A DNA stretch of 38,490 nucleotides from Candidatus Aenigmatarchaeota archaeon. Lineage in GTDB: Archaea > Aenigmatarchaeota > Aenigmatarchaeia > CG10238-14 > JAGHAA01. The notes under the pieces are model-generated. The model searched no databases, was not told the DNA's origin, and worked only from the letters and a program-made list of their open reading frames with translations. The position numbers and the translations under genes are program-made. Below, one piece after another: positions 3,705 to 38,154 of this stretch. Within the stretch, counting starts at the first letter, position 1, and each line of letters begins with the position of its first letter. The stretch lies in contig JAGHAA010000024.1 in assembly GCA_021161745.1 (NCBI GenBank), positions 1-38,490 of the forward strand, read 5' to 3'.

Positions 3705-6700
3705 TTAAGATGAGCAAATCTTCTTTTCCGTTTCATAAACGAGTTTTCTTGTTTTAAGAACAACGTCTGGGTTGACTGAAATGCTGTCTATTCCTTCTTT
3801 TATGAGGAATTCTGTTATTTCTGGGTACGTGCTCGGTGCCTGTCCGCAGATGGAAACTGTTACGCCTGCATCGTGTGCTTTTTCTATCAACATCTTTATT
3901 GCCTTCAAAACGGCCGGATTTCTTTCGTCAAAGTAACCCATCTTTCCGAGCAAACCAGAATCTCTGTCTATTCCTAATACGAGCTGTGTTAAATCGTTAC
4001 TACCTATACTAAACCCGTCGCAAAGTTTTGCAAATTCCTCTGCCAAGAAAACTATGCTTGGCACTTCTGCCATCAACCATACTTTAAAGTTTTTCTCTCC
4101 ACGCCTGAGTCCTTCTTCTTCCATTATCTTCAGAACTTTTTCAACTTCCCAAGTGGTTCTTACAAAAGGAAGCATCACCCATACGTTATCCAGACCCATC
4201 TCATCTCTGACTTTCTTTATCGCCTTACATTCAAGTCTAAACGCCTTCTCGAACTCTGGAGAGATGTAACGGCTTACTCCTCTCCAACCTAGCATTGGGT
4301 TATCCTCTTCTGGCTCATACTTTTTTCCACCTTTGAGAAGTCTGTACTCGTTCGTTTTGAAGTCGCTAAACCTTACAACAACAAAACGTGGGTATATTGC
4401 TTTGGCGACCATTGCTATGCCTTCAGCTAGTTTATCAACATACTTTTGCTCTTGGCCTATTTCTAACAAATAATTCGGATGCTCTCCGATGTAAGTCGCT
4501 ATTATGAATTCTATTCTCATCAAACCTATGCCTTCGAAAGGCAAATCTTTGTAGTCCTCTATCTTCTCTGGCACACCTAAGTTCATAAGAACCTTTGTTT
4601 TAGTTTTGAGTTTCTTTATTGCTTCTATTTCTTCAGGGCTTAATTCTTCCTTCTTTTCTCTTTCAATGATGTCCTCTATTTTGCCGGGATAGACAACCCC
4701 GTTCGTAGCATCAACAGTAACGACTTGACCATCTTTTAAAACTTTCGTTGCGTTCTCAGTTCCTACGATGCATGGTATACCGAGTTCTCTACTAACTATT
4801 GCAGCGTGACATGTTATGCCACCTTCATCAGTTATGATAGCTGAAGCTATTTTCATGTAAGGAACCCAATCAGGATTGGTCATAGTAGTAACGAGTACGT
4901 CTCCCTTTTCTAGTTTTTCTGCTTCTTGTAAAGTTTTTGCGACGATAACTCTACCTACAGCAGCTCCCGGAGATGCTGTCAAACCTTTTACTAAAGGTTT
5001 TATCTTCAACTTTTCTTCCTCTCTCCTTTTTTCGTAGAACACGGTTACAGGACGTGTTTGTAGTAAGAAAACTTTTCCATACTCGCTTGCCCATTCGAAA
5101 TCCTGAGGGAAGCCATAATGTTCTTCTAACTTCTTTGCTAATCCCCAGAGTTGATGGAGCTCATCTTCCGTTAAACATTCGATTTTTTGTAATTCCTTCG
5201 GGACTGATATTTCAACGAGTCCGCCCTTTTCTAGATCTGTGTACCGCATCGTAAGCTTATCTCCTACATGCTTCTCTACTACTTTACCCGTTTCCTTATC
5301 CAGTACATAAGTATCTGGATTTACAGACCCACTGACAACGCTTTCTCCCTGCCCCCATGAACCTTCTATCAGAATCTTGGTTTTATCGCCCGTAGAAGGG
5401 TGTATGGTAAACCCAACACCGGCTTTGTATTTACCAGCCAAGTAATCTTCTTTGCTTAAGGCACCAAGCTGCTTTTGCACAGGTACTGCTATTAAAACTT
5501 TTTCATGGGAAAAACCTTTCTGGTGTCTGTAGAAGGTTGCTCTTGCAGTAAAAAGGCTAGCCCAACATTTTTTAACACCCTCGACCACTTGTTCTGCTCC
5601 TTTCACGTTTAGTAAAGTTAGCTGTTGACCAGCGAAGCTTGCTGAATTATGCGTTATGATGCCTCCAGTTCCCGCAGCGAAGTTTTCGACGCCTGGAACG
5701 AAGAAATCATAAACATAACCACTGTATTCTCTTTCCTTAATACCTTTTACCTCATCCCAGTAAATTTCCTCAGGAACTATTTCGCTTAAGGAAATTCCGT
5801 ACTTTTCACTTAGAACTTTTTGCAATTTTTTAATACCAAAAACATCGTTAACGATTCCCTTATTCCAAGGAATCATTCCTTCCAAAAACCTTCCAAGTTC
5901 ATCATAACCTACGTACTTCAGTTCCTCTTTAACTATTACCTCGTTGCTGTAGAATGTTTTATGACAGTTCCTACAATAAAATCTTTCTCTACCCTTATAG
6001 TGGCTAGATTTTTCAACCTTGTTTTTGCAGTATGGGCATAAGTAGACTTTTACCTTTCTTTTTTGAAGCCTCTCTTCCAAGATTTTCCTAACGTGAGACG
6101 TTGGAAAAGGTAGTGTGTATATGAAATCATGATGTCTCTCACGACTTCCAAATTCTTTTGCTATTCTTTTAGCCTTCTCGAATTTTCTTCTATTTTCAAA
6201 CCCTACAATCCTTAAAAACTTCTGAGTGTCTCTAGTAAGTATCTTTATAGTTAAACTCTTTCCCTTTCTCCTTATGTAAAAGTCTATTCCGAGCACTTCT
6301 AAAAGCTTAGTTAGACCAGAGATCAAGCGTTTAGATGTGTTGTAAAAGGATACGTTGGTACTTTCAACGGTACCGTCCCCATCAAAACAACCTTTGACAA
6401 ATTCTGCTATGAACTTCTTTTCTGCATTAAAGACTATGTCTGGAACTAGTTTAACGTACCTACCCTTACCTTTTTTGCCGCTATCCTTTACTGCGATATT
6501 TTCAAGCAATTCCACTAACTTTTTGGAGTATAGCCTTAACTCATCTTTTTTAGTAGTGCTAACCCTTATTCCAAGTTTTTTAGCAAACGTTTTAATCCTT
6601 TCGACAACGGATTGATCGAAAACTGATAGGATGATGGACCTTGAGTGCTTGTCTACCGTTCCGTCGGCGGCAAAGATACCAAAAAAGTAGAAGAAATCTT

Positions 6701-7496
6701 CATCCAAGTTTAAGTTATCCATGTTTACTGGAAGTAACTCTTTAAGCTTCTTACGATTAAGTGGTTTTAATTCTAACCTTCTGGTTACGGGAACTCTAAC
6801 TTTTTTACCTATTGCATCCTTTGTTTTTTGAAGAACTTTTGGCTTAAACGATTTTTCATCTAAAATTATTAACGAATGGTTCGGAGAAACAACAACTCTT
6901 CTTCCACTTTTAGTCATTATCTCATAAAGTTTATCGTTGCAAGGATGTCTATAAACTTCTTTAACTCTCTTCCAAACAACTCTTCCATTTTCCATCGAAG
7001 GGACTTCAAGTATACAGTCTTCACTATTAAACTTTTCCCAGAGTTCGTCCATCGTAAGATGTCTAACAACGCCGTTAATCCTAACTAATACAAATTCGTC
7101 TCCAGCTATGCTAGGTAAATCCTCAGCTGTGGCTGAACTACGGATTGCGACCCATTCCTCTTCTTTTCCAAATTCTTGTGAGAGTTGTTTGTAGGCTTTA
7201 ACTATTTCTTCCTTGATTTCTTGTGGCATCTCAGTTTCCTCTATGAGCTTTCTTATGCTTGCAGTTTTTTCCTCTAAGTCCTTTGGATTGCTGTAATCTA
7301 TAGTTTCAAGTATGCTAAATATCTTACTCCTTATACGAGTAACGTCCAAAAAGTGCTTGTAAGCTTGAGCAGTGACTATGAAAGCGTTTGGCACAGGTAA
7401 ACCAGCGTTATACATCTCACCCAAATTTGCTCCTTTACCTCCAACTTCTGGTATGTCATCTTTTATTATGTCTTTGAGAAATTTTACGAACTTCAA
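3705..7496 (-). CDS. ppsA: phosphoenolpyruvate synthase (pyruvate, water dikinase) interrupted by a 489-aa intein
   Basis: Motifs present are VGGKGANLGEM, SSATAEDLP / SASFAGQQ, the TTMTNPDW..GGITCHAAIVSRELGIP phosphohistidine domain, and the C-terminal PEP-utilising TIM barrel (GSNDLTQ). The extein totals about 786 aa counted from the ORF-track start. The ORF track starts at TTG 7532. TTG 7496 is preceded by TAAGGAGGGGGAGT and gives the usual N-terminus M-KFVKFLKDIIKDDIPEVGGKGANLGEM. Confidence 0.9.
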   Translation of the reverse strand: MKFVKFLKDIIKDDIPEVGGKGANLGEMYNAGLPVPNAFIVTAQAYKHFLDVTRIRSKIFSILETIDYSNPKDLEEKTASIRKLIEETEMPQEIKEEIVKAYKQLSQEFGKEEEWVAIRSSATAEDLPSIAGDEFVLVRINGVVRHLTMDELWEKFNSEDCILEVPSMENGRVVWKRVKEVYRHPCNDKLYEIMTKSGRRVVVSPNHSLIILDEKSFKPKVLQKTKDAIGKKVRVPVTRRLELKPLNRKKLKELLPVNMDNLNLDEDFFYFFGIFAADGTVDKHSRSIILSVFDQSVVERIKTFAKKLGIRVSTTKKDELRLYSKKLVELLENIAVKDSGKKGKGRYVKLVPDIVFNAEKKFIAEFVKGCFDGDGTVESTNVSFYNTSKRLISGLTKLLEVLGIDFYIRRKGKSLTIKILTRDTQKFLRIVGFENRRKFEKAKRIAKEFGSRERHHDFIYTLPFPTSHVRKILEERLQKRKVKVYLCPYCKNKVEKSSHYKGRERFYCRNCHKTFYSNEVIVKEELKYVGYDELGRFLEGMIPWNKGIVNDVFGIKKLQKVLSEKYGISLSEIVPEEIYWDEVKGIKEREYSGYVYDFFVPGVENFAAGTGGIITHNSASFAGQQLTLLNVKGAEQVVEGVKKCWASLFTARATFYRHQKGFSHEKVLIAVPVQKQLGALSKEDYLAGKYKAGVGFTIHPSTGDKTKILIEGSWGQGESVVSGSVNPDTYVLDKETGKVVEKHVGDKLTMRYTDLEKGGLVEISVPKELQKIECLTEDELHQLWGLAKKLEEHYGFPQDFEWASEYGKVFLLQTRPVTVFYEKRREEEKLKIKPLVKGLTASPGAAVGRVIVAKTLQEAEKLEKGDVLVTTMTNPDWVPYMKIASAIITDEGGITCHAAIVSRELGIPCIVGTENATKVLKDGQVVTVDATNGVVYPGKIEDIIEREKKEELSPEEIEAIKKLKTKTKVLMNLGVPEKIEDYKDLPFEGIGLMRIEFIIATYIGEHPNYLLEIGQEQKYVDKLAEGIAMVAKAIYPRFVVVRFSDFKTNEYRLLKGGKKYEPEEDNPMLGWRGVSRYISPEFEKAFRLECKAIKKVRDEMGLDNVWVMLPFVRTTWEVEKVLKIMEEEGLRRGEKNFKVWLMAEVPSIVFLAEEFAKLCDGFSIGSNDLTQLVLGIDRDSGLLGKMGYFDERNPAVLKAIKMLIEKAHDAGVTVSICGQAPSTYPEITEFLIKEGIDSISVNPDVVLKTRKLVYETEKKICSS
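5646..7112 (-). mobile_element. class-1 intein with LAGLIDADG homing-endonuclease domain and an extra CxxC...CxxC zinc ribbon
   Basis: The insert sits between AEDLP and SASFAGQQ of PpsA. Ser1 starts SIAGDEFVLV (block A). Block B is SPNH. The LAGLIDADG motifs are FFGIFAADGTV and FVKGCFDGDGTV. Blocks F/G are YVYDFFVPGVENFAAGTGGIITHN, followed by the +1 Ser. The zinc ribbon is CPYCKNKVEKSSHYKGRERFYCRNC. Confidence 0.85.
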
Positions 7497-7544
7497 ACTC
7501 CCCCTCCTTATATATTTCTTACCATCAATCAATAATTTCTATTA

Positions 7545-8321
7545 GTGAATATTATGGATCCTCTTAAAAAAAAGCGTAAGCGTCTGAAGAAATTTTTTTC
7601 TAAAGACGGGAAAACAGTTTTGTTGGTTTTTGACCATGCTGTCGAGCATGGCCCACATAACTATGAAGGTGTAGACTTAACGCCTCTAAGGATTGCTGAA
7701 ATAGCTGTTTCTGGCGGTGCAAAAGGTGTGATTCTACATGCCGGTTCTGCCAAACTGGTAAAGCAATTCTATCCAGAATTGCCGGTGATAGTTAAGATTA
7801 CAGGAAGAACGAGCTTAACCCCTACTATGGTGCAAGAAATAGTCACGACTGTGGAAGAGGCTGAAAGAGTTGGAGCAGATGGCATAGCTATGACTGTTTA
7901 TGTCGGTGCAACGTATGAGCATAAGATGTTAAGAAACTTGGCAGAAGTAAAGAAGGAGTGTTATGAAAGAGGCCTTCCTTTGTTCACTTTCATGTACCCT
8001 CGTGTAAAAGACAAAAAAACAACAGAAGAAAAGTACGTGAGGTACGCTGCAAGGTTGGGTGCAGAATTAGGAGTAGATGTCGTCAAGACTTACTATACAG
8101 GCGATAAAAAGAGTTTTTCCAAAGTTGTGAAAGATTGTTTCGTTCCACTGGTTTGTGCTGGTGGATTAAAGACAAAAACTGTTGAGGATTTCCTTAAAAA
8201 AGTTGAAACTGTAATGGAAGCTGGAGCAAGTGGTTTGGCTGTGGGAAGGAACGTTTGGATGAGGGAAAATCCCATAGAAGTTCTAAAACAAGTCGTAAAA
8301 AGAGTTATAAAAGGTGAATGA
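7545..8321 (+). CDS. fba: class I (archaeal DhnA-type) fructose-1,6-bisphosphate aldolase
   Basis: 258 aa. The opening GKTVLLVFDHAVEHGP and the TIM-barrel pattern (VVKTYYTGD, AGGLK, GLAVGRNVW) are typical of archaeal class IA FBA. GTG 7545 or ATG 7554 could be the start. Confidence 0.75.
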   Translation: MNIMDPLKKKRKRLKKFFSKDGKTVLLVFDHAVEHGPHNYEGVDLTPLRIAEIAVSGGAKGVILHAGSAKLVKQFYPELPVIVKITGRTSLTPTMVQEIVTTVEEAERVGADGIAMTVYVGATYEHKMLRNLAEVKKECYERGLPLFTFMYPRVKDKKTTEEKYVRYAARLGAELGVDVVKTYYTGDKKSFSKVVKDCFVPLVCAGGLKTKTVEDFLKKVETVMEAGASGLAVGRNVWMRENPIEVLKQVVKRVIKGE

Positions 8322-15948: not shown

Positions 15949-16533
15949 TTGATGAAAAAACAACTTGAAAGTCTGATAGATAAGAGATCTGGGTTTAACG
16001 TTTCCCATGTAATTCGTGTTCTCTTTCTCCTTGATGAACACGTAGGTAGGAAAAGGATTTGTGAGACTCTTGGCATAGGAGAGGCTTCTGTGAAAACTCT
16101 GTTTAAACGATTAAAAGAAGTTGGATGGATTAGTTCAACGAAAAAAGGGCATAAGCTGACAGAGGAGGGAAGAAAAATAGTTCAGAAGATTTTGAAAGTG
16201 ATGGAAAAGCCAGTTGAAATAACTATGAAAGATTATGGTTTAGGAAAGAGGAGTTTTGTAACTGTTGTGAGGAAGGCGTGTAAAAAAGTTAAAATGGGTA
16301 TCGAGCAGAGAGACGAGGCTATAAAAATCGGGGGAGAAGGTGCGATCACGTTGATAGTAAAAGATGGAAAGCTTATTTTTCCTGGGACTGGTGAAGTTGC
16401 GAATGAAAATCTAGCTGAGATAATCAAAAGACTTTTCAAACTGAATGATTGTGATGTTGTCATAATAGGGTTTGCCAAGCAGAAGAATAAGGCTGAAGAG
16501 GCTACTTTAATGGCAGCTCTCTCACTCGTTTGA
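15949..16533 (+). CDS. winged-helix DNA-binding protein with an uncharacterised C-terminal domain (possibly DUF4443-like)
   Basis: RKRICETLGIGEASVKTLFKRLKEVGWI has a wHTH pattern. The start is TTG 15949 or ATG 15952. The family name is from memory only. Confidence 0.45.
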   Translation: MMKKQLESLIDKRSGFNVSHVIRVLFLLDEHVGRKRICETLGIGEASVKTLFKRLKEVGWISSTKKGHKLTEEGRKIVQKILKVMEKPVEITMKDYGLGKRSFVTVVRKACKKVKMGIEQRDEAIKIGGEGAITLIVKDGKLIFPGTGEVANENLAEIIKRLFKLNDCDVVIIGFAKQKNKAEEATLMAALSLV

Positions 16534-16938
16534 AAAAAGTTTCATTATATCATTGTTCTTCATGTATTTCCACTCTATCGTTGAATTTCTAAAAAGTATG
16601 TATTTATCAGCAGCCTTATCTGCTAACTTTCCGTTGACGAAGTAAATCCATGAGTGTGAAGAGTTCTGGCTTACGTTGTTTATGGAAGTTAAAAAGATTC
16701 CCATGTCCCCATAGTCTTTATACTTGATTGTGTAAACAGAGCTCAATACGTCAAAGACGGTGGATACGTTTTCTGTTTTGATGAGTGTTGATGCTTTATG
16801 ACTACCAAAATTCACGGTTAGGTTATGATAAAGGAACACATCCTTACTCTTTTGATTTTTTGTGGAATATTGTGATCCTAAGAATACCATCGTTAGTAGT
16901 AGGATCGAAATTCCTAATAGCAAGTATTTTCCTTTCAA
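16522..16938 (-). CDS. secreted or membrane-anchored DUF4430-like protein (transcobalamin beta-domain-like)
   Basis: A hydrophobic N-terminal anchor (KYLLLGISILLLTMVFLG) is followed by a ~110-aa beta-rich domain ending WIYFVNGKLADKAADKY..STIEWKY, which is typical of DUF4430. It has a TTG start and overlaps the upstream gene by 95 nt. Confidence 0.55.
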   Translation of the reverse strand: MKGKYLLLGISILLLTMVFLGSQYSTKNQKSKDVFLYHNLTVNFGSHKASTLIKTENVSTVFDVLSSVYTIKYKDYGDMGIFLTSINNVSQNSSHSWIYFVNGKLADKAADKYILFRNSTIEWKYMKNNDIMKLFSNE

Positions 16939-17518
16939 TTCTATCGAACCTCCATTTTCTTAGTTCATCGGAGAAAGCATAAAGTAAAACGCCAAACCCA
17001 ATGTTTGTAACTGTATGGATTATAGAAAACGGAATGCTTGTGACTATATATAGGAGTGGCGAAAAAGGAGAAAAAATAAACGCCATAGGAATCGTTACAA
17101 TGACTTCGTAAGCGAAAGAGCCTATTATTAGACTAATCAAAAACAAGTATTTACTCTTACTCAGACGACCTAAAAGACCTGATAAAAATCCTGCTAGCCC
17201 AACACCTAACGATTGAAAAACCGTCCAAAGACCTTGGCCTCCCCATACAAAGTAGTTAGAGATGTAAAATCCCACTGTTCCAGAAAAAAATCCTGAAAGA
17301 GGGCCTAAAAAGAAGCCTAAGAAGATTGAGATGGGTGTCAAAGGTTCTACGCTAGGGACGAATTGGAACGCAACCCTGCCTACTATTCCAGCAACCGTAA
17401 AAAGAAGAGTAAGCAGAACTAGCTTGGTTTGGGAGAGTATTGTAAGGTTCTGGTTTAGAATCAAGATTTGAGTTTCTTTCTGTCCTTGCTGTGTTTGTCT
17501 GGCTAATGAACTTTTCAC
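16844..17518 (-). CDS. polytopic membrane protein of ECF-transporter S-component size and type
   Basis: 224 aa with about 6 hydrophobic segments and Gly-rich helices (GFFLGPLSGFFSGTVGFY). It has a GTG start and is co-directional with the DUF4430 gene. Confidence 0.5.
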   Translation of the reverse strand: MKSSLARQTQQGQKETQILILNQNLTILSQTKLVLLTLLFTVAGIVGRVAFQFVPSVEPLTPISIFLGFFLGPLSGFFSGTVGFYISNYFVWGGQGLWTVFQSLGVGLAGFLSGLLGRLSKSKYLFLISLIIGSFAYEVIVTIPMAFIFSPFSPLLYIVTSIPFSIIHTVTNIGFGVLLYAFSDELRKWRFDRIERKILAIRNFDPTTNDGILRITIFHKKSKE

Positions 17519-17570
17519 GTTGGATAATTTGTCCAGTTGAATTAAAAATGTATTTTGGTTGAGAAGAATA

Positions 17571-17586
17571 TGTTATACGTATAACA
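17571..17586. promoter_or_regulatory. perfect 16-bp palindrome TGTTATACGTATAACA (copy 1 of 3)
   Basis: Read directly. It lies in the divergent spacer between the ECF-S-like gene (start 17518) and the MFS gene (start 17630). Confidence 0.75.
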
Positions 17587-17629: not shown

Positions 17630-18988
17630 ATGGAAAACAGACCAGAAATAAAAAGGCTTTATTGGTTTGAATTTTTTAAATCTCTAAGTCAAGAAATGAT
17701 AAACCCCTTCTTGCCAGTCTTTGCACTAGTCTTGGGTGCTTCTAATTTTCTCCTAGGGAGCATGTCAAGTTTGGTTACGTTGGTTGGATTAATTTCACAG
17801 CTATTTTTCATGGTAGTTGTGGTCAAAACGAAAAGAAAAGAAGAAAGTTTGATTATAGCCACTATACTCTGGTCATTAATGTGGTTTGTCATAGGAAGTA
17901 GTAAGGATCCTTATCAACTCATACTATTCCTTTCCATCCAATCCTTCTTCTCCACACTGATGACGATTTCTTGGACGGAAATTTTCGTTTCTTCTGTTCC
18001 TAACTACCTTAGAGGAAGAATAGTTAGTAAGATAAACTTATTCAACAAAATAGGCTTGGTAATAGCAACTTTAGTATCTGGGATTGTTTTCAACAAATAC
18101 GGGTTCGTTCCTTTTATCTTTTCTGTTAGCACTCTTTTTGGGTTGATTGCCTGCTCGACTATGCTATGTTTAAAATGCATATCTCCAAGGTTGCCTAGGT
18201 TACGAATAAGGTTCAGAAAAACCAGAATAAATTTCAAGTTCTTGAGGGAAAATCCAAAATTCTACAAACTACTAAAAGCTAGAATTGTTTTATCCTTCGC
18301 TTTAGGACTAACTAGCGTATTTTTTACAGTCCAGTTAATAAAGCACTTCCACGCTACGTTGTTCGATATAGCTTTGATAACGATTCTAGGTTCTGTGGTT
18401 AGGATATTGGTATTCAAGCCATGGGGATTTTTGGTGGACTTTATAGGAAGAAAAGCGGTTATGATAGCAACTCTTACTTTCATTTCCCTTTACCCATTAG
18501 TCTATGCTTTTTCTCCATCTTTGATGTTGATATACGTATTTACCATTCTAGGAAACATGTCTTGGGCTGGGTTTGACGTCGCTCATTTTACGTATTTCTC
18601 AGAAACTTTAGATAAAAAAAGAGTTGTGGACTTTACGACAAGTTACAACTTTTTGACTCAGATATCACTCGTTCTAGGAAAGTTTATTGGAGGTCTTATA
18701 GCAGAATTTGGAAGTTTAATTGCTGTATTCATGTTATCTTTCCTTTTTAGAGTCTCATCCTCTTTCTTCTATTCAAGACTGGATGAAAAGACGGGTCCTG
18801 TTAGGATGCCTTTGAGGATAGGTTTCGGTGAAGTAAGGTTTTCAACGCTAGAACATACAGTGGCCATTTATGCGGAACTTTTTTCCATTCTTATGAAGAA
18901 CTTTTCACGAAGAAGAGAGAAGATTTTTCACACACTTGATTTGTTTATAGAAGAAATGAGAAGGTTTTTGAGAAAACTGAAGAGTTAG
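17630..18988 (+). CDS. MFS-type transporter
   Basis: 452 aa with about 12 hydrophobic segments in two halves separated by a basic loop (RLPRLRIRFRKTRINFK). Confidence 0.6.
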   Translation: MENRPEIKRLYWFEFFKSLSQEMINPFLPVFALVLGASNFLLGSMSSLVTLVGLISQLFFMVVVVKTKRKEESLIIATILWSLMWFVIGSSKDPYQLILFLSIQSFFSTLMTISWTEIFVSSVPNYLRGRIVSKINLFNKIGLVIATLVSGIVFNKYGFVPFIFSVSTLFGLIACSTMLCLKCISPRLPRLRIRFRKTRINFKFLRENPKFYKLLKARIVLSFALGLTSVFFTVQLIKHFHATLFDIALITILGSVVRILVFKPWGFLVDFIGRKAVMIATLTFISLYPLVYAFSPSLMLIYVFTILGNMSWAGFDVAHFTYFSETLDKKRVVDFTTSYNFLTQISLVLGKFIGGLIAEFGSLIAVFMLSFLFRVSSSFFYSRLDEKTGPVRMPLRIGFGEVRFSTLEHTVAIYAELFSILMKNFSRRREKIFHTLDLFIEEMRRFLRKLKS

Positions 18989-31881: not shown

Positions 31882-32448
31882 CTACATCATCACTATACTC
31901 AAGAAGAAGTCCTGTAAAAAGTAAGCCAACAAGATGTTGTAAACAGCATTCGTTATGTATGCGAATATGTACATGTAGTCTTGCCTTATGAATATATCCA
32001 TCGTTGCTAACAACAAACCTTTCACGATCATGCATACAGCAACTATGATAACGAAAGGGATCTGATTTGCCCAAAGTATGCTTGCTAAAGCACTTATTAT
32101 ACCATAAACGACATTATCAGGCGTCGGTAAGAAAGGAGGATATTTCATCTGCATAGGTGGAGTTAATTGCCATGAGACTATGCTCAAGAAACCTGTCAAT
32201 ACGGGCATTACTAAAAAACCAAAGATAAAACCACCAATAGGTCCTTCTATCATGCCTACGAGTATCATAGGGATAAAAATGAGGTCTATTCCTATGTACG
32301 AGTTTATCTTGATGAAGGAAGTAAAGATGACTTTGTCTATCCAGATCATCACATAGATTATTCCATAGCCTAAACCACCAAGCTTTGAAAAAATCCAAAA
32401 GCCTGCTATCAAGCTTATGAGAGCTTCTATAAGCCAGCGTGTATTCAT
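31882..32448 (-). CDS. polytopic membrane protein of unknown function (about 6 TM, ECF S-component-like size)
   Basis: 188 aa and hydrophobic throughout. Copy 2 of the GTTATACGTATAAC palindrome lies 53 nt upstream of its ATG. Confidence 0.5.
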   Translation of the reverse strand: MNTRWLIEALISLIAGFWIFSKLGGLGYGIIYVMIWIDKVIFTSFIKINSYIGIDLIFIPMILVGMIEGPIGGFIFGFLVMPVLTGFLSIVSWQLTPPMQMKYPPFLPTPDNVVYGIISALASILWANQIPFVIIVAVCMIVKGLLLATMDIFIRQDYMYIFAYITNAVYNILLAYFLQDFFLSIVMM

Positions 32449-32500
32449 GATCTATATGTGAAAATTGTGGTCGGTTTTAAAAATTTTTAAGGTTTATCAA

Positions 32501-32514
32501 GTTATACGTATAAC
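32501..32514. promoter_or_regulatory. perfect 14-bp palindrome GTTATACGTATAAC (copy 2 of 3)
   Basis: Read directly. It lies upstream of the membrane-protein gene and abuts the 5' truncation point of the MBL pseudogene. Confidence 0.75.
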
Positions 32515-32530
32515 ACATCTTCATAATTAT

Positions 32531-32817
32531 TCTGGATGTGCACATGTGGGTATTATAAAATTCCATAAGGTAATTCTTAAAAAATAACTGGGAGAGAAAA
32601 AGTGTATGGTATAGTTGGAGGTTTGCACCTTAAAAACGACAAACAGAAAATAAACAATACGATCAGAAAATTGAAGAAGATAAATCCTACTTACATACTT
32701 CCATGCCATTATACGGGTTATGTTGCTGTTAATAGAATGATAGAAGAATTCAGTGAAGAACGTGTGATAACATCTCCTACAGGAAGTTTTTCAGTAGGTG
32801 AGAAGTGGAGCATATGA
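32531..32817 (+). pseudogene. 5'-truncated, frameshifted remnant of an MBL-fold (COG1237-like) gene, paralogous to 29050..29865
   Basis: The frame starting at 32531 reads SGCAHVGIIKFHKVILKK-stop, matching TGCAHPGIANIVRFVEQKF of the intact paralog. A second frame from about 32590 reads GREKVYGIVGGLHL...LPCHYTG...SVGEKWSI, matching FGKVYLVVGGFHL...MPCHCTG...GVGRILKI. The HxHxDH half is missing. Confidence 0.7.
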
Positions 32818-32874
32818 AAGTTTTGTATGAAGAATGTTGAATAATATGTGTTTTGGAGTGTAGAAAAATTTATA

Positions 32875-32890
32875 TGTCTCACGTGAGACA
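32875..32890. promoter_or_regulatory. perfect 16-bp palindrome TGTCTCACGTGAGACA between a TATA-like box and the 32896 ATG
   Basis: Read directly. AAATTTATA lies immediately upstream and the ATG lies 5 nt downstream. It has the same TGT-NNN-ACGT-NNN-ACA architecture as the thrice-repeated palindrome. Confidence 0.6.
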
Positions 32891-32895
32891 AAATA

Positions 32896-33111
32896 ATGGT
32901 GAGTCAAGTGTTTGTTTTAGTCTTCGACTTCCCAAGAAGCTTGACAACAGAAAGAAGACAGCTAAACAGAATGCTCCACCGTATAGGAGCCAAGCGTTTG
33001 CAAGACTCGCTTTGGAGACACGAAGACCTTAATTCTTTGATGGAAGTTGCGATGTTTATAAAACGGTTTGGCGGAAGTGCAAGAATCTTGGAAGAGAGGT
33101 TCGTTTTCTAA
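32896..33111 (+). CDS. small stand-alone Cas2-like / PaaX-C-like ferredoxin-fold protein (tentative)
   Basis: 71 aa. VFVLVFDFP...ERRQLNRMLHRIGAKRLQDSLWR....LMEVAMFIKRFGGSARILEERFVF follows the beta-alpha-beta-beta-alpha-beta pattern. The 'v.fD.p....rr.l.r.L...G...lq.SvW' signature is that of Cas2-like domains. No CRISPR array or other cas genes are in the window. Confidence 0.35.
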   Translation: MVSQVFVLVFDFPRSLTTERRQLNRMLHRIGAKRLQDSLWRHEDLNSLMEVAMFIKRFGGSARILEERFVF

Positions 33112-36355: not shown

Positions 36356-36886
36356 ATGGTTAAATTTTTTGAACTACTATCTTCAAGAACGTTGGGAAAA
36401 ATCTTAGATGTTATGCTTGAGAATTCGAACAAAGAGTACAGCTTAAGAGAAATAATAAAGAAGTCCAAAGTTTCAAAGATAACGGCTTTGAACAATCTGA
36501 AGAAGCTATCTAAAATGGATGTAGTAGAGAAAATCAGAAAAAATGATGGAAGAGTGTTTTTTAAAATAAAGAATAACTCGTTAACACATGAGTTAAAACT
36601 GTTGTGGATAGTGTCTCAACTCTATCCGTTCTTTAAGAATGTTGACTATGAGGTTTATCTTTTTGGAAGTTATGCTAATGGCGATTATGATGAAAACAGT
36701 GACATAGACTTGTTGATTTTTCAGAGGAGAACGAAGGAAATTATCAGAACAATAAGAAGGATTGAGAATAAATTGAAGAAGAGAGTTAACGCTATATTCT
36801 ATACACCCATTGAATGGATGAAAGTAAAAAAAGTTAATCCAGGATTTTTTGAGATGGTGGAAAGAAGCAAGGTAAGGATATCATGA
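36356..36886 (+). CDS. winged-helix plus minimal nucleotidyltransferase (MNT) protein, antitoxin-like partner of HEPN
   Basis: YLFGSYANGDYDENSDIDLLIF fits the GSxxxG..x..SDIDLL MNT signature. The N-terminal ~80 aa have a wHTH pattern. It overlaps the HEPN gene by 4 nt. Confidence 0.75.
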   Translation: MVKFFELLSSRTLGKILDVMLENSNKEYSLREIIKKSKVSKITALNNLKKLSKMDVVEKIRKNDGRVFFKIKNNSLTHELKLLWIVSQLYPFFKNVDYEVYLFGSYANGDYDENSDIDLLIFQRRTKEIIRTIRRIENKLKKRVNAIFYTPIEWMKVKKVNPGFFEMVERSKVRIS

Positions 36887-37305
36887 GAGTAGAAGAATTG
36901 GTAAAAAGAGGATTTCTGAAGAGAATAAAACCGGATAAAAGAATGGTGGAACATGAATTAAAAGAGGCTGAGTATGATTTAGAAAAAGCAAAGATTAGCT
37001 ATCAAGAAGGAGATTTTAAGTGGTCTACTATAAAAGCTTACTATACTATGTTTCATGCTGGAAGAGCAATCCTTTTCTCGAGGGGATTTAAAGATAGACG
37101 TCATTTCGCTGTAGGTATGTTCTTAGAAGAACTTGCGAAAAGAGGAGAAATCAAGTTTTCGCTCGTGGACTCTTTCAGGGCTGGTATGTCAGCAAGAGAG
37201 GATGCCGATTACGGTGGCATTTATTTTGAAGATGTCGCATTACAGACTCTTCAGATGGCTGAGGAATTTGTGGAAGAAGTGAAGAAAATTTTATTCAAGA
37301 AGTAG
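36883..37305 (+). CDS. HEPN-domain protein (toxin-like partner of MNT)
   Basis: 140 aa and all-helical. YYTMFHAGRAILFSRGFKDRRHFAV and the AREDADYG motif are typical of HEPN proteins paired with MNT genes. Confidence 0.65.
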   Translation: MRVEELVKRGFLKRIKPDKRMVEHELKEAEYDLEKAKISYQEGDFKWSTIKAYYTMFHAGRAILFSRGFKDRRHFAVGMFLEELAKRGEIKFSLVDSFRAGMSAREDADYGGIYFEDVALQTLQMAEEFVEEVKKILFKK

Positions 37306-37306
37306 A

Positions 37307-37322
37307 TGTTATACGTATAACA
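37307..37322. promoter_or_regulatory. perfect 16-bp palindrome TGTTATACGTATAACA (copy 3 of 3)
   Basis: Read directly. It starts 2 nt after the HEPN stop codon and ends 53 nt before ATG 37375 of the MinD-like gene. Confidence 0.75.
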
Positions 37323-37374: not shown

Positions 37375-38154
37375 ATGCCTTTACCAAGAATAATAGCGAT
37401 AACGTCAGGAAAGGGTGGTGTAGGCAAAACGACAGTTTCTGTAAACCTTTCTGCAACACTCGTAAACTACTTTAAAAAGAAAGTGACGATAATCGATGCT
37501 AACGTAACCACTCCTCATCTAGCTCTTCATTTTGGTATTTACAAATACGACGCAACTCTTAACGATGTCTTGCGTGGGAGAGCAGACTTGTCTGATGCCT
37601 CTATACTTCATCCTAGTGGGATACAGATAATCCCGGCTTCTTTGAACCTCACCGATTTAGTCGGAGTAGATATAGCGACTCTTGGGGATGTGTTGAAGGA
37701 CATGTTACCTACAGAGGATTTCATCATAATAGATTCTGCTCCAGGATTTGGAAAGGAAGCAGTATCTGCTTTAAAGGCTTGTGAAGAAGCTATTATCGTT
37801 TCTACGCCGACTGTACCAGCTATAATGGATGCTATCAAAGCGAAAAAAGTTCTGCAGGAGCTTGGTGTCGAAAATCTAGGGCTTGTTTTGAACAAAGTAA
37901 TGGGAAGAAAGTATGAGTTGAAAAGGAGTGAAATAACTGAGCTCATAGACCTTCCAGTCTTGGCAGAAATACCATTCGATGAGAAATTTCAGGAAGCTTT
38001 GGCGGCAAAGATGCCCTTAATCCTTTACGATAGAAAATCACCCACAACTCTTCAATTCCTAGAACTAGCATCAATTCTTACTGGAGAAAAGTACGAAATG
38101 CCAAGGTTAAGTATATGGGCAAGGATCAGGAAACTTTTCTGGAAGTTTTCTTAA
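37375..38154 (+). CDS. minD: MinD/ParA-family P-loop ATPase
   Basis: The deviant Walker A is SGKGGVGKTT and Walker B is IIIDSAPG. The ORF track starts at TTG 37366, but ATG 37375 is more likely. Confidence 0.75.
   Translation: MPLPRIIAITSGKGGVGKTTVSVNLSATLVNYFKKKVTIIDANVTTPHLALHFGIYKYDATLNDVLRGRADLSDASILHPSGIQIIPASLNLTDLVGVDIATLGDVLKDMLPTEDFIIIDSAPGFGKEAVSALKACEEAIIVSTPTVPAIMDAIKAKKVLQELGVENLGLVLNKVMGRKYELKRSEITELIDLPVLAEIPFDEKFQEALAAKMPLILYDRKSPTTLQFLELASILTGEKYEMPRLSIWARIRKLFWKFS

Follow-up and report, generated by a model that had tools for sequence, protein, structure and literature searches.

The three perfect copies of the palindrome GTTATACGTATAAC in the window (the whole stretch of 38,490 nucleotides analysed here, from a Candidatus Aenigmatarchaeota archaeon) are probably operators of a TAT-specific paralogue of a ~68-amino-acid Cas2-fold homodimer, whose gene would lie off the contig; from the comparison of sequences we put the probability of this reading at roughly 0.68. 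The broader pattern is most likely that of an undescribed Aenigmarchaeota family of ~68-residue Cas2-shaped proteins, each of which would read its own 16-bp palindrome. We found no description of such a system in the literature on the sequence, on palindromic motifs in DPANN archaea or on Cas2-like DNA-binding proteins. The features of the window that enter the argument are as follows.

16522-16938: DUF4430 gene, which comes after the ECF-S-like gene.
16844-17518, minus strand: gene similar to the S component of ECF transporters; flanks copy 1 and is a possible target.
17571-17586, no strand: canonical palindrome copy 1, TGTTATACGTATAACA, in the 111-bp divergent spacer between the ECF-S-like and MFS genes.
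17630-18988, plus strand: MFS transporter gene; flanks copy 1 and is a possible target.
31882-32448, minus strand: gene for an orphan 188-aa polytopic membrane protein; downstream of copy 2 and a possible target.
32500-32515, no strand: canonical palindrome copy 2, AGTTATACGTATAACA, with the exact 14-mer core at 32501-32514, ~52 nt 5' of the 188-aa membrane-protein gene.
32862-32874, plus strand: BRE/TATA-like box AGAAAAATTTATA, which abuts the CTC palindrome, matches the family consensus and is the putative promoter of the small gene.
32875-32890, no strand: fourth member of the palindrome family, the CTC variant TGTCTCACGTGAGACA, between the BRE/TATA box and the ATG of the small Cas2-fold gene, 5 nt before that ATG.
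32896-33111, plus strand: gene for a 71-aa protein of predicted Cas2 fold (P0026, J7K98_01575, annotated 'hypothetical'), a member of the palindrome-associated family with homologues beside sites.
37307-37322, no strand: canonical palindrome copy 3, TGTTATACGTATAACA, ~52 nt 5' of the ATG of the archaeal MinD gene.
37375-38154, plus strand: gene for an archaeal MinD-type ATPase (TIGR01969, 220 bits against a cutoff of 201.75); downstream of copy 3 and a possible target.

An exact motif scan places the three copies of the 14-mer at 17572-17585, 32501-32514 and 37308-37321, all of them non-coding, and the next-best matches in the window carry three mismatches. A base-composition model predicts ~0.0004 copies, and none of 100 shuffles of the window reached the observed count. 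The sequence-only reading, which had reported three perfect intergenic copies beyond chance, was correct on both points. Counted as bases between, the gap from core edge to start codon is 53 nt to the GTG at 17518 (minus) and 44 nt to the ATG at 17630 for copy 1, 52 nt to the ATG at 32448 (minus) for copy 2 and 53 nt to the ATG at 37375 for copy 3; the geometry described earlier holds, and its values of 53-54 and 45 nt count one base more than the bases between (52-53 and 44). Copies 2 and 3 are indeed followed, in the direction of the gene, by TGATAAAC and then an A/T-rich box. From these positions, just upstream of A/T-rich TATA-like boxes and 43-52 bp from start codons, the canonical sites are best read as binding sites of a two-fold symmetric protein. 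The earlier proposal of a dimer's operator upstream of BRE/TATA survives to that extent. An abutting BRE/TATA box is present at none of the three window sites. Likewise, its statement that there is no further full copy is right for the exact 14-mer but overlooks a site of the same architecture, the CTC variant at 32875-32890.

Within a palindrome family, TGTnnnACGTnnnACA, the canonical sequence is the form seen most often. Of 87 occurrences of GTNNNACGTNNNAC in archaeal loci, 70 are perfect palindromes, 16 have one asymmetry, one has two and none is random. The perfect variants other than the canonical one number 17, against 0.45 in shuffles. Doublets of sites 33-62 bp apart are common. A TATA box that happens to be palindromic was considered and rejected: the canonical site has TATAA on both strands, but variants such as TGTCGTACGTACGACA do not. 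In the sites compared there were no conserved flanks beyond ~18 bp around the palindrome; the site is therefore not part of a longer repeat, and an origin as a MITE was rejected.

The exact 16-mer TGTTATACGTATAACA occurs in several copies per genome in ~15 archaeal MAGs, several of them titled Aenigmatarchaeota. About half of its 98 matches in genome contigs fall in archaeal MAGs, with up to nine matches per MAG and an exact-site copy number of ~5-10. Of 58 canonical sites examined across archaea, 52 fall outside every ORF of 100 aa or more, in DNA that is 82% coding (P = 5e-32). The genes beside the identical 16-mer in the ~15 other archaeal MAGs include those for SMC, SepF, RFC, aminoacyl-tRNA synthetases, Cbf5, dCTP deaminase, aIF5A and Cdc6. 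The same 16-mer is also found in bacteria: in Sphaerochaeta it has a LacI-family regulator gene on one side and an operon for a sugar ABC transporter on the other, and in Adlercreutzia it precedes a gene of 99 aa, after which comes a PIN toxin gene. We found no member of the small Cas2-fold family in those bacterial loci or in the viral loci; the same system in bacteria or viruses was rejected on these grounds, and the bacterial copies look like the work of unrelated readers that use the same sequence.

These neighbourhoods bear directly on the regulon first proposed for the window, in which the palindrome would be the operator of a winged-helix (wHTH) factor encoded there (at 15949, 18985 or 38160) and would control a small set of vitamin or cofactor uptake genes. 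In the window alone this idea has some appeal: the possible targets are the ECF-S-like/DUF4430 pair, the MFS transporter and a small membrane protein, wHTH genes lie nearby and a gene for NMN adenylyltransferase is adjacent. Elsewhere, however, the identical site adjoins housekeeping genes that are unrelated to one another, with no bias towards transporters, and is frequent in convergent spacers (13 of 42 sites), a pattern that speaks against a small regulon for cofactor uptake. All ORFs of the window were annotated, and the three wHTH genes among them do not recur beside sites in other loci. Footprinting through the ECF-S gene also failed, since its homologues in three loci (L114, L116 and L118; ~50% identical) lack the palindrome. 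The comparison of ECF-S homologues revealed a different conserved palindrome, TGGATAATTTGTCCA, distinct from the canonical one. The DUF4443 wHTH gene at 15949 is more plausibly tied to this second palindrome, at 17521-17535 in the window, and co-occurs with it both there and in L118. Taken together, we consider the cofactor-uptake regulon very improbable. The DUF134 gene of the window does not recur beside sites elsewhere either, and a homology search with the 188-aa membrane protein (31882-32448) gave no protein except itself.

Only one gene does recur beside the palindromes, a small gene for a protein of 68-71 aa, represented in the window at 32896-33111. Homologues of the 71-aa ORF are present in ten palindrome-selected loci, each from a different MAG, and the palindrome stands at the start of the gene in all ten. 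An independent sample, approached from the protein, agrees: among 80 metagenome loci picked only for the similarity of the protein, 76 carry a 16-bp palindrome, perfect or with one mismatch, no more than 48 nt upstream of the start codon. Several paralogues occur per genome, with at least six on the 419-kb contig Ga0315298_1000011, and paralogues within one genome can have different palindromes. Around them lie housekeeping genes, in an arrangement that orthologues of one subtype share and other members do not; on this ground both a conserved partner gene and a mobile cassette were rejected.

At ~90 loci the family palindrome lies between a BRE/TATA box and the start of the small gene. In 51 non-redundant family promoters it ends 3-26 nt before the start codon (median 17), and the box directly 5' of it, (A/C)(C/A)GAAAAG(T/C)TTATA, matches BRE plus TATA. 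This is the classical position of an archaeal repressor. MDR1, LrpA, Phr and NrpR are small, autoregulated archaeal repressors whose operators lie between TATA and the transcription start, and repressors of this kind block the recruitment of RNA polymerase from there; the family palindrome resembles such operators in abutting BRE/TATA and ending a few bases before the start. The proteins differ, however, in that those four have HTH, wHTH or RHH domains together with sensor domains or ligands, whereas the archaeal family has a predicted Cas2-type fold and no obvious effector domain. In the window this fixed core-promoter position, in front of the small gene itself, is occupied by the CTC site at 32875 and not by the three canonical copies. 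We infer that the CTC palindrome is an autoregulatory operator of the Cas2-fold gene; the same variant also precedes a 76%-identical homologue in another locus (L220). The idea that solitary sites also carry this promoter module was rejected, since a BRE/TATA box abuts just three of 59 canonical sites.

An indication of which protein reads which palindrome comes from their covariation. There are ~21 half-site subtypes, and the same protein subtype is found with the same palindrome in independent samples. Residue 21 is K or R if and only if base 4 of the half-site is C, a rule that divides the unique pairs 38/0/0/32 and, at the level of subtypes, 10/0/0/11 with no exceptions (Fisher P = 2.8e-6). 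Arg25 is replaced by Leu only where G2 is replaced by T. In addition, L238 and L300 are paralogues from a single contig whose sequences hardly differ except in helix 1, and their operators differ at one mirrored position (CGT versus CAT). Some of this covariation could reflect shared descent. The covariation suggests that helix 1 (residues 17-29) of the window protein is the recognition helix, and R21 of that protein predicts C at base 4, that is, the CTC site rather than the canonical one. If the window protein is specific for the CTC variant by the residue-21 rule, the reader of the canonical sites should therefore be an off-contig paralogue. The canonical sites have T at base 4, and their predicted reader is a paralogue whose residue 21 is V or L, encoded elsewhere. 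The retrieved loci of two site-rich MAGs, co184_616 and SMAG_U8146, contain no family gene.

The same data weigh on the idea that the palindromes act as hairpins in RNA or single-stranded DNA (a terminator, processing signal or stabiliser), with inner triplets that co-vary simply to keep the stem paired. Such a function would account for the perfect symmetry of divergent variants and for sites placed after stop codons, and the G+C-richer CTC variant does fold at -7.4 kcal/mol. The canonical stem, however, reaches just -1.7 to -2.6 kcal/mol, and two of the three copies fold no more stably than shuffled sequence. The sites are not followed by a T-run, and Rfam gave no match in the window; a terminator or RNA hairpin was rejected on these three points. 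Stem-breaking hybrid half-sites also recur, for example TGTAATACGTATAACA, whose A·A mismatch is found four times in one locus (L168), and the residues of helix 1 track the bases. At family genes, moreover, the palindrome sits between TATA and the predicted start and is therefore upstream of the transcript. A hairpin function is accordingly extremely improbable.

What sort of protein is the presumptive reader? An AlphaFold2 model of the small protein, built on a four-sequence alignment, has a pLDDT of 92 and the topology b-a-b-b-a-b, and its best matches in the PDB are Cas2 (E = 2.4e-4, TM-score 0.66) and VapD. On this model the small protein has a Cas2-like fold. Its similarity to the Cas2 model TIGR01573 extends over strand 1, helix 1 and strand 2 and remains below threshold (16-22 bits against a cutoff of 24.5), and the aspartate that closes strand 1, a catalytic residue in Cas2, is at least 90% conserved in the small family. 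Cas2 itself is a homodimer that sits on duplex DNA in the Cas1-Cas2 complex. The resemblance does not extend to genetic context: there were no cas domains in the window ORFs scanned and no cas1 gene or CRISPR array in the window, and the neighbours in other loci are housekeeping genes. The small protein is also shorter than Cas2 and is tied to short stand-alone palindromes inside promoters, and the sequence-specific readout by helix 1 proposed for the small family is not a property of Cas2.

Remote relatives are also found among known regulators. A profile of the family retrieves two ChrB_N proteins (P0101 and P0109) that share its pattern in strand 1 and helix 1, and so detects both remote homology to ChrB_N and a shared arginine motif in helix 1. 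ChrB_N (Pfam PF20229) and the central Cas2-like domain of PaaX, PaaX_M (PF20803), are remote sequence relatives of the small family, with Pfam scores below the gathering thresholds (19.7 versus 24 for PaaX_M; 20.7 versus 23 for ChrB_N, with the L183 copy). ChrB is a chromate-responsive regulator whose N-terminal domain has been implicated in DNA binding by mutagenesis (PMC3817168). The ChrB of O. tritici binds, mainly as a dimer, to an inverted repeat just upstream of the gene that encodes it, at -37 to -4, and repression is lost in the mutants R18A and R23A (PMC3817168). R18/R23 of ChrB and R20/R25 of the window protein are arginine pairs with the same i, i+5 spacing, a putative correspondence drawn from the residue pattern. 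Unlike ChrB, the archaeal proteins are bare ~68-aa domains without the C-terminal sensor half, and among the 89 family representatives, nearly all of them 65-80 aa long, none stands out as joined to a sensor or wHTH domain in the manner of ChrB and PaaX. They also differ in that a genome has several archaeal paralogues, every one of them paired with an exact 16-bp palindrome of its own, and in that sites are dispersed outside the proteins' own promoters. DNA binding by the small Cas2-fold protein is inferred from these lines of evidence.

A Cas2-like protein beside dispersed palindromes also calls to mind REP/RAYT systems. The palindromes might be mostly non-regulatory and be kept or spread by a Cas2-like nuclease or palindrome-handling enzyme, with one paralogue for each palindrome family. 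As with REP elements, the archaeal palindromes are extragenic and often doublets; they occur in all kinds of spacers and are in excess between convergent genes. As with RAYTs, there is one paralogue per palindrome family, and the gene can have its cognate palindromes around it: in L240, L253, L257, L210 and L201 the same variant stands on both sides of a small gene or short operon. A module of promoter plus palindrome is duplicated within one MAG (L165 and L203), and conservation of the Cas2-catalytic aspartate would fit an enzyme. Against this, the protein has only ~68 residues, and the alignment shows neither an HUH motif nor a conserved tyrosine of the kind found in IS200/IS605-type transposases; exact sites number about 5-10 per MAG rather than hundreds, are perfect 16-bp palindromes and have no flanking sequence in common. 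Precise placement between BRE/TATA and gene start in ~90 loci is typical of an operator, each paralogue keeps its own conserved neighbourhood among housekeeping genes, and different MAGs have sites at conserved positions (L152 and L180, for example). We regard a REP/RAYT-like origin as unlikely.

The distribution of canonical sites nevertheless goes beyond promoters. In gene maps drawn by crude ORF calling, 13 of 42 classifiable sites lie in convergent-gene spacers, against a background of 17% (P about 0.02), so that placement is not confined to promoters; some of these spacers measure just 23-46 bp, with flanking genes confirmed with Pfam. One convergent spacer of 137 bp has two or three sites and is conserved between two MAGs. 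Many canonical sites begin 0-8 nt after a stop codon, among them window copy 3, which begins 1 nt past the TAG (37303-37305) of a HEPN gene. A pure promoter-operator model does not explain the sites in convergent spacers. They would be expected if the palindromes were architectural, either as gene-boundary punctuation that blocks read-through or as a parS-like means of organising the chromosome, whichever protein binds them. The family pattern also fits the bacterial parS consensus, TGTTTCACGTGAAACA, phage copies of which were seen in the sequence search. However, parS was rejected in the lack of any ParB-like gene tied to the sites: a weak HTH_ParB match fell on a generic 104-aa HTH protein that is not recurrent and whose PDB matches are non-specific. 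The sites of QQ_2_bin_128 are, moreover, spread over more than 100 kb. As to a roadblock, the geometry at the family's own promoters points to control of initiation, and we know of no sequence-specific roadblock terminator in archaea. An architectural role of either kind as the main function is unlikely.

We return, then, to operators read by Cas2-fold paralogues, for which a mechanism can be outlined. Each subunit of a homodimer would set helix 1 in the major groove and read one half-site, TGT-nnn-AC, with the nearly invariant Arg25 coupled to G2 and residue 21 coupled to base 4. Comparison shows that the promoter of every family member carries that member's variant between BRE/TATA and gene start, from where bound protein would give autorepression by blocking the recruitment of RNA polymerase; it also shows further copies of each family member's variant elsewhere in the genome. 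At the three window sites, which lie 43-52 bp before starts and just upstream of TATA-like boxes, bound protein would for that reason act on the neighbouring promoters, those of ECF-S/DUF4430, MFS, the 188-aa membrane protein and MinD, and its effect could be either activation or insulation from read-through. A wider extrapolation, which is possible but doubtful, is that Aenigmarchaeota and perhaps other DPANN archaea use an enlarged repertoire of minimal Cas2-fold proteins as 'addressable' DNA readers, with a simple code in helix 1 that ties each paralogue to its own 16-bp palindrome, and with palindromes at promoters and convergent gene ends of the compact genome that serve both as a transcription factor network and as boundary or roadblock elements; sites of different paralogues would then be stacked in the same spacers. 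Were this so, the Cas2 fold would be capable of reading short palindromes sequence-specifically, which bears on the origin of the CRISPR adaptation module.

The results support the view that the Cas2-like N-terminal domain of ChrB binds DNA; homology may extend this to PaaX, whose central domain has otherwise found little explanation. They also raise the question of what perfect operator-like palindromes do between convergent genes. The family may also provide a compact protein scaffold, already diversified in nature, for reading specific DNA sequences. If the proposed code is true, DNA targets would be predictable from protein sequence (residue 21 with base 4, Arg25 with G2), and sites could be assigned to their readers across uncultured genomes. 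Gene control is poorly understood in the tiny genomes of DPANN archaea, and in this window we recognised few regulators; if our reading is true, part of DPANN regulation runs through ~68-residue proteins that are at present annotated as 'hypothetical'.

A scan of the window found exact copies of the 14-mer GTTATACGTATAAC at 17572-17585, 32501-32514 and 37308-37321, where a base-composition model expects 0.0004 copies; the second-best matches have three mismatches and no shuffle reached the observed count. This confirms the claim of a sequence-only reading that three exact copies are present and that all are intergenic (non-coding). At copies 1 and 3 the full 16-mer is TGTTATACGTATAACA; at copy 2 it is AGTTATACGTATAACA. 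These canonical (TAT) sites, which have T at half-site base 4, belong to a family of palindromes with a fourth member in the window, TGTCTCACGTGAGACA (the CTC site), which precedes a gene for a small Cas2-fold protein.

17571-17586: canonical copy 1, in a divergent spacer of 111 bp flanked by an ECF-S-like gene (then a DUF4430 gene) and by an MFS gene
32500-32515: canonical copy 2, 52 nt upstream of a gene for a 188-aa orphan membrane protein
32875-32890: CTC site
32896-33111, plus strand: small Cas2-fold gene, 71 aa
37307-37322: canonical copy 3, first base 1 nt past the stop of a HEPN gene, with an archaeal MinD gene 52 nt downstream

None of the three canonical window sites has an abutting BRE/TATA box. 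They lie 43-52 bp from the start codons with A/T-rich boxes in between, and hence upstream of core promoters; the site-to-start distances put forward earlier are correct, and the TGATAAAC and TATA-like boxes named there are present. This placement is compatible with the activator-like geometry that had been proposed, but would fit shielding of the promoter from read-through equally well, given that copy 3 directly follows a stop codon. The gene that ends there is part of a wHTH-nucleotidyltransferase (MNT) and HEPN pair (36356-37305), probably a toxin-antitoxin module.

When one genome per species was scanned, the 16-mer gave at least 98 matches; about half of those listed are in archaeal MAGs, with up to nine per MAG among the matches listed. 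Several of these MAGs have Aenigmatarchaeota in the record title, on which the taxonomy given here is based. In the retrieved archaeal loci, 52/58 canonical sites are clear of any ORF of 100 aa or more, against 82% coding DNA (P = 5e-32), and the flanks are unconserved, so that the palindromes are not pieces of a longer repeat; scatter into coding DNA and a longer repetitive element, both raised by the sequence-only reading, were thus checked. The adjacent genes (from our own ORF calling, with convergent cases spot-checked with Pfam) are heterogeneous housekeeping genes: SMC, SepF, RFC small subunit and Cdc6; Arg- and Trp/Tyr-tRNA synthetases; Cbf5, dCTP deaminase (twice) and aIF5A; POR and NifU. 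The homologues of the window ECF-S gene in three other assemblies (L114, L116 and L118) lack a canonical site, so footprinting through this gene failed. Together with the mixed neighbours, this rules out the small, functionally coherent vitamin or cofactor uptake regulon proposed earlier. The 42 classifiable canonical sites occupy 13 convergent, 10 divergent and 19 tandem spacers, the convergent share exceeding the 17% background (P about 0.02), and many start 0-8 nt past a stop codon. A parS-like or roadblock role may apply at the convergent sites, but no ParB is associated with the palindromes.

The ECF-S/DUF4430 locus has features of its own. The pair (16522-17518) is kept in all homologous loci (L114, L116, L118), followed in L118 by a 675-aa prenyltransferase/terpene-cyclase-like protein. 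DUF4430 resembles the beta domain of transcobalamin, so the pair may be a cobamide-uptake module. A separate palindrome, TGGATAATTTGTCCA (17521-17535), immediately precedes the GTG start of the ECF-S-like gene, and the near-identical TGGATAATTTATCCA immediately precedes the ATG of its homologue in L118 (9990-10004, on a 769-kb JGI contig). In both, a PH0730-like_N/DUF4443 winged-helix gene is convergent with the operon, and this palindrome looks like the operator of that regulator. Elsewhere in the window, an intein with a LAGLIDADG homing endonuclease interrupts a PEP-utilising enzyme of 1275 aa with the domains PPDK_N, PEP-utilizers and PEP-utilizers_C (3705-7532, minus strand).

Two bacterial groups also carry the identical 16-mer, conserved at a single orthologous position in each genome: in Sphaerochaeta (L144, L170, L177, L185) it separates a LacI-family regulator gene from a sugar ABC transporter operon, and in Adlercreutzia/Eggerthellaceae (L133, L157, L190) it precedes a 99-aa gene, after which comes a PIN toxin gene. 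These copies look like parts of unrelated systems. Some viral contigs (L011, L105, L061 and L063/L096/L097, the last being IMGVR_UViG_3300028188_000013) carry two to five copies or near variants of the 14-mer, spaced for example 742-755 bp apart. The Cas2-fold family gene is absent from these contigs, and the viral copies probably serve an unrelated phage regulator as its operators.

The wider family is defined by the common form TGT-nnn-ACGT-nnn-ACA. Of 87 matches to GTNNNACGTNNNAC in the retrieved loci, 70 are perfectly palindromic, 16 have a single asymmetry, one has two and none is random; perfect non-canonical variants (CGT, CCT, CAT, GAA, CAC, AAA, AAC, CTC and others) number 17, compared with 0.45 in shuffles. 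Neighbouring members are often 20-60 bp apart. That the sites act as an RNA hairpin or terminator is unlikely: canonical stems have folding energies of just -1.7 to -2.6 kcal/mol, the sites are not followed by a T-run, hybrid sites that break the stem recur, and Rfam has no match in the window.

Several arrangements are more elaborate. In MAG SRP093762_co1_53, a second palindrome, TGATACACGTGTATCA (TGATACATATGTATCA in L186), lies 4-5 nt before every canonical site (L156 4507-4542, L169 7521-7557, L186 7837-7873, L191 2884-2920), which suggests two paralogues acting jointly. Upstream of cbf5 (TruB/PUA) stands a stack of five or six family palindromes (L168 2001-2428, L183 286-618); here the small Cas2-fold gene reads in frame into cbf5, and the gene call for one database representative, P0085, gives a fusion of this kind. 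A BRE/TATA and palindrome stretch of at least 30 identical nt occurs twice in MAG QQ_2_bin_128, one copy driving a small Cas2-fold gene and the other facing an arginyl-tRNA synthetase gene 115 nt off (L165 about 4990-5033, L203 about 7709-7753); in other metagenome contigs the family gene itself is directly 5' of ArgRS. In two Aenigmatarchaeota MAGs (L210 1300-1764, L201 5324-5788), the small Cas2-fold gene is directly followed by one for a 154-aa membrane-anchored protein with, by eye, a PD-(D/E)xK-like motif (D..E.K), and canonical palindromes 1526 bp apart flank this short operon.

When all window proteins were compared by tblastn with the palindrome-selected loci, the one striking result was the 71-aa ORF at 32896-33111, which has homologues in ten loci from ten MAGs, with a family palindrome at the gene start in 10/10. 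The L220 homologue (76% identical) has the same CTC palindrome, and a close relative, P0029 from SRP093762_co1_53, has TGTAAAACGTTTTACA. Of 80 further metagenome loci chosen by protein similarity, ignoring DNA motifs, 76 carry a perfect or one-mismatch 16-bp palindrome no more than 48 nt ahead of the start codon. Across 51 non-redundant promoters it ends 3-26 nt (median 17) before the start codon, and the preceding 16 nt have the consensus (A/C)(C/A)GAAAAG(T/C)TTATA, a match to an archaeal BRE and TATA box. Because this element abuts the palindrome, the latter occupies the gap from TATA to the expected transcription start, a position at which archaeal repressors block recruitment of RNA polymerase. 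The window shows the same order: AGAAAAATTTATA, TGTCTCACGTGAGACA, AAATA, ATG. Just upstream, a 71-aa ORF (32602-32817) without a Pfam match resembles by eye a C-terminal metallo-beta-lactamase-fold fragment and may be a gene remnant.

The AlphaFold2 model of the small protein (mean pLDDT 92, topology b1-a1-b2-b3-a2-b4) has Cas2 proteins (E = 2.4e-4, TM-score 0.66) and VapD as top PDB matches, and sub-cutoff sequence matches are to Cas2 (TIGR01573), PaaX_M and ChrB_N. No cas1 gene or CRISPR array lies beside the gene in the window or among its neighbours in other loci. The family is small: 1.84 billion proteins yielded 89 representatives, almost every one of them 65-80 aa long. Its profile also retrieves bacterial ChrB_N proteins, with which it has the pattern of strand 1 and helix 1 in common. 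ChrB of O. tritici acts mainly as a dimer; its target is an inverted repeat spanning -37 to -4 of its own gene, and repression is lost in R18A and R23A mutants (PMC3817168). This arginine pair has the same spacing as R20/R25 of the window protein, to which we infer it would map.

The most serious alternative is a REP/RAYT-like system, with which the bias to convergent spacers, the palindrome doublets and the genes flanked by palindromes agree; against it stand the lack of an HUH/Tyr protein, the low copy number, the fixed promoter placement and the stable housekeeping neighbourhood of each paralogue.

The small Cas2-fold proteins, putative readers of the palindromes, co-vary with them. Among the 85 protein/operator pairs there are about 21 half-site subtypes, and a given helix 1 sequence is paired with one and the same palindrome across independent samples. 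Position 21 is K/R in 10/10 subtypes with C at half-site base 4 and V/L/T in all 11 with another base (38/0/0/32 unique pairs; Fisher P = 2.8e-6 at subtype level). R25 is nearly invariant, giving way to L solely in the TTTCACAC subtype, which has T in place of G2. This covariation could be partly inherited, but paralogue pairs within a contig argue against that source: those of L238 and L300, on one 419-kb contig, are near-identical except in helix 1 (LQRQVQRDLHR vs LEKRINRELRK), and their operators differ by a single mirrored change, CGT vs CAT. That contig holds at least six paralogues and another holds three, so putative readers of different palindromes coexist in one genome, which explains why different variants can be neighbours within a single spacer. 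Under the residue 21 rule, the window protein (R21) would fit the CTC operator and not the canonical site. Nine MAGs bearing canonical sites have a V/L21 member whose own promoter contains the canonical palindrome or one 1-2 bases off, and on these grounds the source genome is predicted to encode a TAT-specific paralogue elsewhere.
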